Part shown: piece after piece, positions 48,901 through 54,900 of the stretch
Numbering within the stretch: the first letter of the stretch is position 1
How the letters are laid out: each line of letters begins with the position of its first letter
Assembly (NCBI RefSeq): GCF_056746865.1
Contig: NZ_CM163382.1
Length of the DNA: 64,000 nucleotides
Direction: 5' to 3' (one strand)
Position numbers: made by a program

Positions 48901-51900
48901 CGGGGTATTCCGCTGAGCGAAGAGGAAGAAACCTTTGACTGGTCCCACGGTCATCTGCAGGTGCCATTAGTGATTCACTGGCCAGGTACGCCGGCGCAGC
49001 GTATTAATGCTCTGACTGATCATACCGATCTGATGACGACGCTGATGCAACGCCTGCTACATGTCAGCACACCTGCCAGCGAATATTCGCAAGGTCAGGA
49101 TTTGTTCAACCCTCAACGCCGTCATTACTGGGTTACCGCCGCGGATAACGATACGCTGGCAATTACCACCCCGAAAAAGACGCTGGTGCTGAACAATAAC
49201 GGTAAATACCGTACTTACAACTTACGTGGTGAAAGAGTGAAAGATGAAAAACCACAGTTAAGTTTGTTATTGCAAGTACTGACAGACGAGAAGCGTTTTA
49301 TCGCTAACTGATTAATTATAAATCAGTTAGCAAAATATCTTACTTGCAATCGGTGTGGAAAACGGTAGTATTAGCAGCCACGAGTCGGCACGTAGCGCAG
49401 CCTGGTAGCGCACCGTCATGGGGTGTCGGGGGTCGGAGGTTCAAATCCTCTCGTGCCGACCAAAAATCCCAAAAAAAACCAACCTTTACGGTTGGTTTTT
49501 TTTATATCTGCATTTAATTCGATAAACAGACCGCGACACATCACGGCCTGTTTATTTTCTGTTATCAGAACGTCCAGACCACACCCGCCTGAGTATTCCA
49601 CGGCGATTCTACCCCTGCGCCATTGCCATAGCTGACTGACAAATGACCGCTTAACGTCGGGGTGAACGATGACCTTATCCCAGCCTGATAAACGCCACGG
49701 GTTCCAGCCACATCATTATTAAATTTGCCATCGTCATTAACTTTCACCTGGTTAGAATCGGCGTATTCCTGACGTACGGCGGCTTTCAGCCAGGGTTCCA
49801 GCGTCGTACCGTTTTGCAGGTCCATGTGATAGCTTACCGCCGTTCCCGCTTCAGCGCGTAATATGCGGGTATTTCCCACATCCGCGCGCATGCCGTTTGA
49901 TAACGTGTAGTCCTGACCATCTGTGGTAAAGCCGGTAAAGGCCAGATAAGGTCTAACACTCCACAATCCGTCAACCCAACGGAACCCGCTCTCGACATGA
50001 GCACCCGCGCCGTTACTACTGTAATCGCCAAACGCTGTTGCCCCATTACTCATCTTGCCATGGATGGTGTTGGCAAAACGGTCAACTTTCACCACTCCAT
50101 CAACATAGGCACCGTTCTGATGCTCCCAACCGGCATAAGCCCCCAGGGTGTAGCTATCGACATTGCCTTTGCCGCCGCGATCAAAACCAATATCAGAATG
50201 AGAGTAACCAAAGAACAAGCCGCGAATTGTGCTGCTTTCTTCACGGGAGAAACGGCTATCGATACCGAGCGTCAGGCCCGTCAATGTTTGCTCAAAGCCA
50301 GCTCCCGCATCAGTGGTCACGTTGTTGCGGGTGTTAATTGCCGAACTCCACATCGCCGTATCGTAACTAACGCCTTTTACGCTACCAAGACGCTCACGCA
50401 CGGTGTCCAGTTCTGCATCAAATACCAGCGGTTGTGCTGCTGCCATGTTCAGCACATCAGTGGTTGAAGGGGTAATTTGCGCGCGATTCTCTGCGAGGCT
50501 CCAGCTATGGTTGCCATTATCCAGCAAGGTATATTCATACGTACCGATATCAACAACGCCTCCGGCATTGCCCAACGTAAATGCAGCATCACCGCCGCCC
50601 GTTGTTACCAGTGTAAGGCTATCTCCTGCTGCCGGGCTGGCACCGGTGTCCGTCACGAATATTTTGAAATCACCTGTTGCCTGCCCGGTGACGTTGAGCT
50701 GATCGCTCTGATGATTAGCCATATCGGTACGCATATAAAAATTGCCGTTTCCCGATAGGGTATTGGTGGTCAACGTAGTGAAATTTTCCGCACTTGCCGT
50801 CACAGATGAACGAGTCACTGGCTCAGCCATCATAATCACATTTGCGCCAGACATCGCAAGGTTGGCTAAGTTGAGGGGAGTGTTTTGGTTCGTCGTAGTG
50901 ATATCGGCAATGATGGTCCATGCGCTATTTTCGAGTGAAACATCCGCTTTGCTGGTATCCACGGCACCATGCGTTCTTAAAGAAGCGCCCTCAGAAACCA
51001 CTACCTTACCCACCAACATAGCGGGTGCATAATTTATTTGCGGCTTCATGACCTCAAGAATGCCATCATTCCCTCTGACTGAAACGTTAACCATTGTGCC
51101 AGCCCAGACATTAGCGCGGCCATTGTTGATAACCATATTTTCAGAGATGGCTTTAGAGGAATACGTGATACTTCCATTCTGATCTGATCGACCGAGATCA
51201 TACACCGCATTTGCCTGCACTCTCGTACCAGTATCCTTTCCCAGCGATTGCATAGTGGCATGCTCATCAAGGATAGTGTCAATGGCCTGCGTGTCCTCCA
51301 TAACAATAAGCCCGGAACCATCATCCAGCTCATAATTTTTTGACACACCATCTTTTATACTAAATTGGCCTTTACTGTTTGTACCACTCACTTCCAGCGC
51401 ATTCGTTGAGACAATTAATTTTCCGCCTGCTTTTTTATCAACGCCAGTTGCAGTCCCGCCATCCATAACCTCCAGTAAGCCGCCACTATCCACAGTGGTA
51501 TTATAAGCGAAGTCATTTTCTTCAACTCGCAAACTTCCGCCGTTTTCCAACAGCATATTATTAGCAATACCATCCTTGATATCGAACTGACCGAGACGGT
51601 TTGTTCCGAATACCTCCATGGCCCGGGTGGTTGTTTTAATCGCACCGCCTGCTTTCTGATCTACCGCAAATGCTAATCCCCCCTCTTTAACCTCCAGTAA
51701 TCCTCCCTTTTCGATAGCGGCAAAGACGGTAATCCCATCTTTTTCAATAATTAAGCGCCCGCCTTTAATCGTAGGTTCATTCGCTGCGCCATAAACCTGT
51801 AGCACACCATTATTGAGGGTAGTCTGGTTTGCCGCACCACCCATTTGAACAATTTGATAACCATCATTTAATACTGAGTATTCTGCGGTGCCATTCATTT

Positions 51901-54900
51901 CAATGTACTGATACCCGCCGTTAATTTCAGTATTACTACTTATACCAAATTCTTTAATATGCTGTTCTCCGCCAGGATTGATTTTCGTATTATTGGCGGT
52001 CCCATAAACCAGCTGGATATCTTTTTCCAGGACAACACCATCAACTGTCTCACCATACTCAACTGTTGATGCCAATGCTATGGGTGAATATAACGCTGTA
52101 GCCACCAGAACAGATATTGCGGAACGACAAAGAGAAACAGAACCAGATTGATGCATTGAGCTTTCATCCTATGAAATTAATTGCTGTTAAAAGCATTGGG
52201 TAAAGAAAATACCCATAGCTCCATACCCGGAGTCAGTTTTTAAAAACTGTTTAAAGAAATGCACAAGTATTGTGATTGATTTTTTAGTTGTTTTTCTTGA
52301 TGAGAAGCTGATGCAAAATTCCGTCTTTATAATGAAAATGATGCCAAAGCGAACGACAAGGTTGTAGTTTTCACTACATGTCCATACATAAAATGGGGTA
52401 ACATTCACGCGCCTGGTAGCGTTACCAACGCTACGCTCAAACATAATGATTCTAATAAAACCTCAGGAGACTACTATGCCTGAAGCAACGCCTTTTCAGG
52501 TGATGATTGTGGATGATCATCCACTTATGCGACGCGGTGTTCGTCAGTTACTGGAGCTTGATCCTGGCTTTGAAGTGGTCGCCGAAGCGGGCGACGGCGC
52601 GAGCGCGATCGATCTGGCGAATAGACTGGATATCGACGTGATCTTGCTGGATCTCAATATGAAAGGTATGAGTGGCCTGGATACCCTCAATGCCTTGCGC
52701 AGGGATGGCGTTACCGCGCAAATTATTATCCTGACTGTATCAGATGCCTCCAGCGATGTCTTTGCGCTGATAGACGCAGGCGCAGACGGTTATCTGTTGA
52801 AAGATAGCGACCCGGAAGTGTTGCTGGAAGCGATTCGTGCCGGAGCGAAAGGCAGCAAAGTCTTTAGCGAACGCGTCAATCAGTACTTACGTGAACGTGA
52901 AATGTTTGGCGCGGAAGAAGATCCCTTCAGCGTGCTGACGGAGCGCGAGCTGGATGTTCTGCACGAGCTGGCACAGGGGCTGTCAAATAAACAGATTGCC
53001 TCGGTGTTGAATATTTCCGAGCAGACAGTAAAAGTACACATTCGCAATCTGCTGCGTAAACTCAATGTCCGCTCACGCGTGGCGGCCACCATTCTGTTCC
53101 TGCAACAACGCGGGGCACAATAAAAATAGCCCGATGGCATCACCATCGGGCCTCTTTTTATTTACTCTCCTGCGGCGACAAATGTTGCATCGCCTGCGCG
53201 ATACTACGTTCAATCACTGCACGGCGAGTATCGTTGGCAGGTAAGAGTTTCAACATCATCTCCCACGCGGCAACCGCTTCGCCAAATCGCTGCTGCTCAA
53301 AGGCATTAAACGCATACATGCTTAACACACGGATATTGCTATGGTCCGTTCTCACCAACTGGCGTAGCAGTTCACCACCGAGGCGGTTGTCGTTGGGATC
53401 AGATGAACGTGTCAACGCTTCAGCGTATCCGAGCGCCGCATCACTGTTCTTCGGATCGAGGCGATATGCAGTAGCGTATGCATCGGTGGCAATACTGGCG
53501 TTACCCAGCGCCATGCCAACGCGGCCCAACATAATCCAGCCTTCTATATCTCCCGGATTTTTTTGCAGTTGAGTACGCATCCCCAGCGCCAGGCGCGACA
53601 TCTCTTCTTCGTTGAGCGGATCGGCTTTCGGATCCAGCGCCCTGTCCAGTAACGCCGGAGCCTGTGCCGTGGCCTGCTGCCAGATTTTCACCTGCTGATA
53701 ATTGCCCGTCTGGTAGTAGCTGACGCCAGCCACAATTAACGCCACCACAATACCCGGCAGATAAACAATATATCCGGCACGCTTACCTTCCGGCACGCTT
53801 TGTTCAGGAAACGCGTCCGGCACCACGCGTACCCGACGCCGCGAGCGGGCGTATATGACCCAACCGCCAATGCCAATAGCCACTACCGGAAGCACCCACA
53901 GCAGCATGGTCAGCGGCGTTAACGGCGGATCGTAAGTGACGAAGTTGCCGTAACGCGCCACCATATAATCGACAATCTCTTTTTTACTTTTACCTTCCTG
54001 CATCAGTTCATACACTTTCTGGCGCAGGTCGGTGGCAATCATCGAGTTGGAATCGGCAATGCTGTTGTTCTGGCATTTCGGGCAGCGTAGTTCTTCAGTG
54101 AGTTGCCGGAACTGCTGCTCCTGCGCTTCATCCTTAAACTGCAACACGTCGATGGTCGCCAGCGCTGAGCCGGAGATCATCAGCATCAGCACGCCCAATA
54201 AAAACCTCATTGTGCGGCCTCCTTACTGTATTTCTCCCACAGCGGCTTGATCTCTTCTTCCCAGACGCGAGGATTGAGATCGCCCGCATGGCGATAGCGA
54301 ATGATGCCGTTGCCGTCAATAAGGAACGTTTCTGGCGCGCCATAGACACCGAGATCCAGTCCTAACATGCCGTCGCCATCAAACAGGCTTAGTGCGTAAG
54401 GATTGCCCAGCTCTTTCAGCCAGCTGATTGCCTTCTGGCGATCGTCTTTATAGTTCATGCCGACCACGCGGATGCCCTGCGCAGAAAGCTGATTCAGATA
54501 TTGATGTTCCGCACGGCAGGTCGGACACCAGGTCGCCCAGACGTTAAGCAGCACTGGTTTGCCCTGAGTCAGCACATCCGCCTGATAAAACTGCCCCGGA
54601 TTGTCCAGTGATTCGAGGCGAAACTTCGGCACCGGCTTGCCAATGAGCGCCGATTCCAGATTGGTCGGATCATCCCCTTCGGCATTACGCGCCAGCTGCC
54701 ACAGTAGCGCCGCGGCAATCGCCAGGAAGATAATCAACGGAATTAACAATACTTTGCGCTTCATACAGCCTCCGGCGCAGTTTTCTGCGGGTTCACGCGC
54801 TTACGATAGCGAGGATCAAACAGGCACAGCAGCCCGCCCAATGCCATCATCAGCCCGCCCGCCCAAATCCAGCGAACAAACGGTTTGTAGTAAAGACGCA

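Follow-up and report, generated by a model that had tools for sequence, protein, structure and literature searches.

The stretch of DNA analyzed here (the window) comprises 64,000 nucleotides of contig NZ_CM163382.1 from NCBI RefSeq assembly GCF_056746865.1, and within it lies an uninterrupted copy of yejO, an autotransporter gene situated between the tRNA gene proL and the response regulator gene narP. The yejO coding sequence (CDS) occupies positions 49565..52156 on the minus strand, where the open reading frame (ORF) list gives 863 codons plus a stop with no interruption and MHQSGSVSLCRSAISVLVATALYSPIALASTVEY as the opening residues of the frame. The protein starts with MHQSGSVSLCRSAISVLVATALYSPIALA, followed after the predicted signal-peptide cut by STVEY, and ends in ...AGVVWTF. 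Its DNA and that of the 118UI gene are 100% identical, and the product is identical to WP_000554217.1, named 'autotransporter YejO'; sequencing errors and hidden frameshifts in the window copy were excluded. Its position between proL and narP, its divergent orientation relative to narP and its high full-length identity to RefSeq-named YejO mark it as the YejO orthologue, and the gene order yejM-proL-yejO-narP-ccmH is kept in every inspected genome with a full-length yejO.

The gene narP, which encodes a nitrate/nitrite response regulator and diverges from yejO, is placed at 52476..53123 on the plus strand because RefSeq annotates a 648-nt narP CDS in the identical DNA of 118UI; the AT-rich divergent spacer is therefore located at 52157..52475 and measures exactly 319 bp. 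An earlier sequence-only reading, whose 2,911-bp span of 49565..52475 corresponds to the CDS plus this spacer, had described a continuous 863-codon frame and a 319-bp divergent gap free of any insertion sequence (IS), and both descriptions proved correct. On the opposite side, proL (tRNA-Pro, anticodon GGG) lies at 49386..49462 on the plus strand (ARAGORN; Rfam tRNA, 54.9 bits), 102 bp from the yejO stop codon, and the sole feature in that gap is a terminator-like hairpin of 15 pairs with a T-run at 49470..49504, found in the terminator scan. An Rfam scan of window positions 49000..53400 returned the tRNA only, and no transposase or island genes were found in the window interval between proL, yejO, and narP. 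An 85-aa ORF within the spacer (52187..52444, minus strand) was taken as spurious, being of low-complexity sequence and unannotated in the inspected RefSeq genomes.

On the evidence of its sequence and predicted structure, YejO has the full architecture of a classical (type Va) autotransporter and belongs to the AIDA/Ag43-like β-helix kind. All sequence-testable type Va features were found, and the signal peptide, repetitive passenger, C-terminal barrel, and ...VWTF ending of the sequence-only reading were borne out by a rule-based check, Pfam, AlphaFold2, and the sequence itself. The predicted signal peptide, residues 1–29 (52070..52156, minus strand), was called by a rule-based heuristic (hydropathy and the −3/−1 rule) and consists of an n-region with Arg11, a hydrophobic core at residues 12–22 (Kyte-Doolittle mean up to 2.5), and Ala-Leu-Ala immediately before Ser30. 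The AlphaFold2 model, for which the input was a 97-sequence alignment from a full-library HMMER search, has a mean predicted local distance difference test score (pLDDT) of 85.8, with low values over residues 1–27, as expected of a signal peptide, and short repeated strands forming a β-helix from residue 30 to ~561.

The passenger, residues 30–560 (50477..52069, minus strand), was assigned from Pfam, the AlphaFold2 model, Foldseek, and phmmer. It includes two AIDA modules of ~74 aa (Pfam AIDA, E = 3e-51, in two stretches) and a pertactin-type C-terminal part of the autochaperone-junction type (Pfam Pertactin, residues 431–555, E = 7.5e-45). Direct repeats in the DNA of yejO do not exceed 16 nt, and the passenger is therefore repetitive at the protein level only. 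It is followed by a predicted linker α-helix at residues 563–592 (50381..50470, minus strand; AlphaFold2 secondary structure, pLDDT above 90), which is expected from the model to sit in the barrel pore, and by the 12-strand β-barrel translocator, residues 600–863 with a terminal Phe (49568..50359, minus strand), which is supported by Pfam, TIGR01414, the model, and Foldseek. The barrel matches PF03797 over residues 602–841 (E = 5.5e-45, 154.5 bits, cut-off 26) and YejO scores 372.6 bits against TIGR01414 (cut-off 16); the AIDA, Pertactin, and Autotransporter β-domain matches all lie far over the Pfam cut-offs. In the AlphaFold2 model the barrel consists of 12 long strands (residues 600–862), and the aromatic C terminus (Phe, ...AGVVWTF) conforms to the β-signal of the β-barrel assembly machinery (BAM).

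The closest relatives beyond the YejO cluster in the full-library HMMER search share at most 45% identity. When the model was compared with the PDB using Foldseek, the passenger matched Ag43 (7KO9 and 7KOH, E about 6e-20 to 1e-19) as well as pertactin, and the barrel matched the BrkA β-domain (3QQ2) as well as EspP, NalP, Hbp, and AIDA-I. A sequence search of the PDB agrees with these fold matches, and phmmer likewise matches Ag43 and TibA.

Alignment of the yejO-narP interval with that of MG1655 (NZ_CP010442) revealed a copy of IS5 in K-12 that is absent from the window, and excluded the possibility that K-12 has an intact yejO without IS5. RefSeq annotates the MG1655 gene as a pseudogene "missing N-terminus", followed by the IS5 transposase gene and a 69-nt 5′ fragment. 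The sequence-only reading had placed this element between yejO and narP; the presence of IS5 at the locus and the disrupted state of yejO were upheld, whereas the position was not, as IS5 lies inside yejO at codons 22/23 and the spacer of K-12 is intact, with 318 of its 319 positions identical to those of the window. BLAST against the MG1655 locus and inspection of the junctions located the 1,195-bp element between two copies of ATAA, 63 nt after the yejO ATG and within the signal peptide; the 4-bp target (ATAA on the plus strand) that is duplicated in K-12 is empty in the window at 52090..52093. IS5 thus cuts the signal peptide and parts the remainder of yejO from its promoter and start codon. 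In-silico removal of IS5 and one copy of the 4-bp target from K-12 regained the 863-codon frame, and IS5 is therefore the sole lesion in K-12 yejO; the reconstructed protein is 97% identical to that of the window, with 26 substitutions. The disruption of K-12 yejO by IS5 has been stated previously (PMC11005336), and yejO is the target of one of eleven IS5 copies in BW25113 (PMC11677980).

The 3.9-kb locus (49300..53200) is 100% identical to that of 118UI, a uropathogenic strain isolated from urine in Mexico City, and 97.2–98.7% identical to that of K-12, in agreement with the earlier view that the window comes from a non-MG1655 strain. The entire 64-kb window is ~4 substitutions away from 118UI. 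In rihB, the window carries an IS3-family element (16256..17563, 1,308 bp; orfA 16308..16634, orfB 16631..17521), annotated as IS1203 in the best matches, without which rihB is found in 118UI. Conversely, 118UI carries IS4 in the proL-yejO hairpin with a 13-bp duplication, at the equivalent of window positions 49481..49493 (a position derived from the 13-bp alignment overlap and annotation), and this site is empty in the window. The two strains are therefore at least two IS events apart despite ~4 single nucleotide differences in 64 kb. The rihB insertion together with 100% identical flanks was not found in complete RefSeq genomes, the closest being 118UI. IS1203 in rihB is also present in four cattle/O157:H7 genomes, with 98.5% identity over 2.4 kb, and the rihB-yeiL region is flanked by nupX and psuT, paralogous NupC-family nucleoside transporter genes with ~80% DNA identity (14742..16026 and 19242..20526).

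The frequency of the uninterrupted state was assessed with a 201-bp probe spanning the IS5 site in 5,426 complete E. coli genomes. It matched in 5,408 and was continuous in 5,015; in 368 genomes, for the most part K-12 derivatives, it was split between two places, those listed being K-12 strains. Coverage of yejO reached at least 80% in 4,281 genomes, a count that takes in the K-12 type, as the joining rule bridges the IS5 gap. By these alignments, yejO appears to be colinear and uninterrupted in roughly 3,900 genomes (~70%), a figure that estimates DNA colinearity and not the integrity of the frame in each genome. An intact 863-aa YejO is annotated by RefSeq in 118UI, BL21-AI, O157:H7 (Z1769), and enteroaggregative E. 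coli 042; a protein identical to that of the window is encoded on at least 1,000 public contigs, and the corresponding 90%-identity cluster, named "autotransporter YejO", contains 16,859 member sequences. A 789-aa in-frame variant without one ~74-aa AIDA module, for example in NIPH17_0020, occurs in roughly 5% of complete genomes as estimated by row sampling, and seems to have arisen by in-frame loss between the tandem AIDA modules at YejO residues ~163–236 (approximately 51449..51670 of the window).

Collectively, these sequence comparisons make it almost certain that an intact yejO between proL and narP is the ordinary, ancestral, and species-wide normal state, with K-12 as the exception. 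The K-12 laboratory lineage lost yejO through insertion of IS5 at codons 22/23, and the window strain, a close relative of 118UI, never carried that insertion.

In the established type Va model, the protein passes the inner membrane via Sec, BAM inserts the barrel, and the passenger is threaded through and folded on the surface. For YejO, the 29-residue signal peptide would route the protein through Sec and BAM would insert the C-terminal 12-strand barrel, aided by the terminal ...VWTF; the linker helix would then fill the pore, and the ~530-residue β-helical passenger would be shown on the cell surface. We infer in this way that YejO may be expressed, secreted, and surface displayed. Analogy with Ag43, AIDA-I, and TibA suggests that the passenger could mediate adhesion, self-association, or cell-cell aggregation.

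The promoters of both yejO and narP must lie within the 319-bp spacer, which has a GC content of 0.36–0.39 (0.36–0.40 when the 5′ end of yejO is included), and an AGGA motif stands 10 nt ahead of the yejO ATG. With up to 2 mismatches allowed, the NarL/NarP 7-2-7 site (TACYYMTNNAKRRGTA) was absent from the spacer and occurred a single time in the window, where 2.4 are expected by chance; control of yejO by NarP is therefore not supported. Cryptic adhesin genes that H-NS silences in E. coli typically have an AT-rich composition, and by analogy the AT-rich 5′ region of yejO is compatible with such silencing.

No observation speaks against the identification of the gene as yejO; several, however, weigh against a working function. 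A σ70 consensus scan of the 319-bp spacer gave no match, the yejO promoter has been called "uncharacterized" (PMC11677980), and a compendium of K-12 RNA-seq data ranks yejO among the genes detected least (PMC10392735), although the allele there is the disrupted one. No report of a YejO phenotype was found in the searched literature, which yielded only presence/absence surveys and the use of yejO as a neutral Keio control. Moreover, several lineages have lost yejO independently: strains of phylogroup B2 (for example E2348/69) carry a decayed, frameshifted remnant of 923 bp, GDSC2227PM has IS1 at the 5′ end of the gene, and in STEC388 it is truncated to 240 bp beside phage-like genes. The gene was also absent from sequence type 131 in a survey (PMC5654935). 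This repeated loss indicates that yejO is dispensable.

Most of these observations are also the basis of an alternative in which yejO is a silent or decaying relic with an open frame, either without any expression or with a product that has lost the ability to fold or be secreted, so that the description of the gene as potentially functional would be overstated. The spacer and 5′ end have the composition typical of silenced adhesin genes and the spacer contains no consensus promoter; the independent losses in other lineages (including that of PMC5654935) and the lack of a phenotype in the searched literature would also be in keeping with a relic. However, the 863-codon frame has been kept, with only 26 substitutions, between lineages ~2.5% apart in DNA, O157:H7, BL21, and 042 likewise have an unbroken frame, and all autotransporter modules are kept and modelled with high confidence. 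The persistence of the frame across these lineages argues that selection maintains it, and we consider it possible, but doubtful, that the gene is no more than a remnant.

A different view of the losses is that they were selected rather than neutral, with intact YejO acting as a condition-specific adhesin or aggregation factor whose expression carries a cost in certain niches, for instance by offering a target to the immune system or to phages. The independent inactivations by IS5 (K-12), IS1 (GDSC2227PM), decay (B2), and phage-associated truncation (STEC388), plus the module loss in the 789-aa variant, might be read in this manner, and YejO is one of few widespread E. coli autotransporters for which the searched literature yielded no phenotype; nevertheless, such a role appears improbable at present. 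Finally, precise excision of IS5 from a K-12-like ancestor, which would make the strain a reverted K-12 derivative, is a formal possibility only, as an element flanked by a 4-bp duplication can in theory leave without a trace, but it is refuted by divergence from K-12 to the point of being scarcely conceivable, given 73 nucleotide differences in 2.8 kb of the yejO region (26 amino acids), ~4 substitutions from 118UI across the window, and a narP-ccmH spacer without the 176-bp insert of K-12.

The narP-ccmH spacer of the window (53124..53157) consists of a single bidirectional terminator hairpin at 53129..53151. In K-12 and BL21 the additional 176 bp contain repetitive extragenic palindromic (REP)-like palindromes flanked by two copies of this hairpin.

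On the far side of yejO, proL can serve as a point of entry for mobile DNA. In E. coli 042, P4-like satellite genes (Icd-like, DUF927 primase-like, and PerC-like) are located between proL and yejO, and in Shigella flexneri 1c a gtrIC-bearing prophage remnant is bounded by tRNA-Pro and yejO (PMC4924310); these cases establish proL as a genuine integration site. A 255-bp probe running from proL into the 3′ end of yejO was at least 80% covered in 4,924 of the 5,426 genomes, and ~500 are without a continuous match over the junction, some breaking at the 3′ end of the tRNA. In the window, as in most strains, the site is empty: the absence of an island at proL, as claimed earlier, was confirmed up to the yejO stop codon, unlike the P4-like element of 042.

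Taken together, the intact yejO of the window represents the species norm and therefore separates this strain from K-12 and from little else; as a strain marker it is correct. It also underlines how atypical K-12 is in this part of the chromosome. The intact state of this named and catalogued gene is already known, and the lesion in K-12 belongs to textbook knowledge. The practical value of the finding is limited to providing an intact allele for functional work on the uncharacterized YejO, and an allele of this kind can be obtained from thousands of sequenced strains, BL21 and O157:H7 among them.

Among known systems, the nearest is YejO itself (b2190 in K-12; WP_000554217.1 in 118UI), with which the window gene shares its position in yejM-proL-yejO-narP-ccmH; the K-12 gene differs in being a pseudogene with IS5 at codons 22/23, where the window allele is uninterrupted. 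More distant similarity is seen with BrkA, pertactin, and Vag8 of Bordetella. The modelled YejO barrel superposes on the BrkA β-domain with a target TM score of 0.90, and matches to 1DAB and Vag8 (7AKV) cover the pertactin domain and junction, but these proteins belong to another genus, have other passenger functions (serum resistance), and share only ~22% barrel identity.

AIDA-I and TibA, which are glycosylated adhesins, have AIDA repeats in common with YejO (TibA 4Q1Q, E = 2e-26), although YejO has far fewer of them. Two matches to the TIGR04415 'strand-loop-strand' repeat, a target of O-heptosyltransferases, were found in YejO; no aah/tibC-type heptosyltransferase gene adjoins yejO, the neighbors of which are proL and narP. 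Against the AIDA-I model NF033176, YejO scores 71.4 bits, below the cut-off of 1,200.

Both by sequence (7KOH, E = 8e-37) and by fold (7KO9), YejO is matched best in the PDB by the self-associating E. coli autotransporter antigen 43 (Flu/Cah). Phase variation, passenger cleavage, and self-association are known behaviors of Ag43, to which YejO is likened by sequence and fold model; the passenger of YejO is shorter (~530 aa) and only ~22% identical. YejO scores 150.2 bits against the NCBIfam Ag43/Cah equivalog NF033177, for which the cut-off is 1,200. By these sequence comparisons, YejO is related to the Ag43/Cah family without being a member of it, sharing with Ag43 a β-helical AIDA-repeat passenger, a pertactin-like junction, and a 12-strand barrel.

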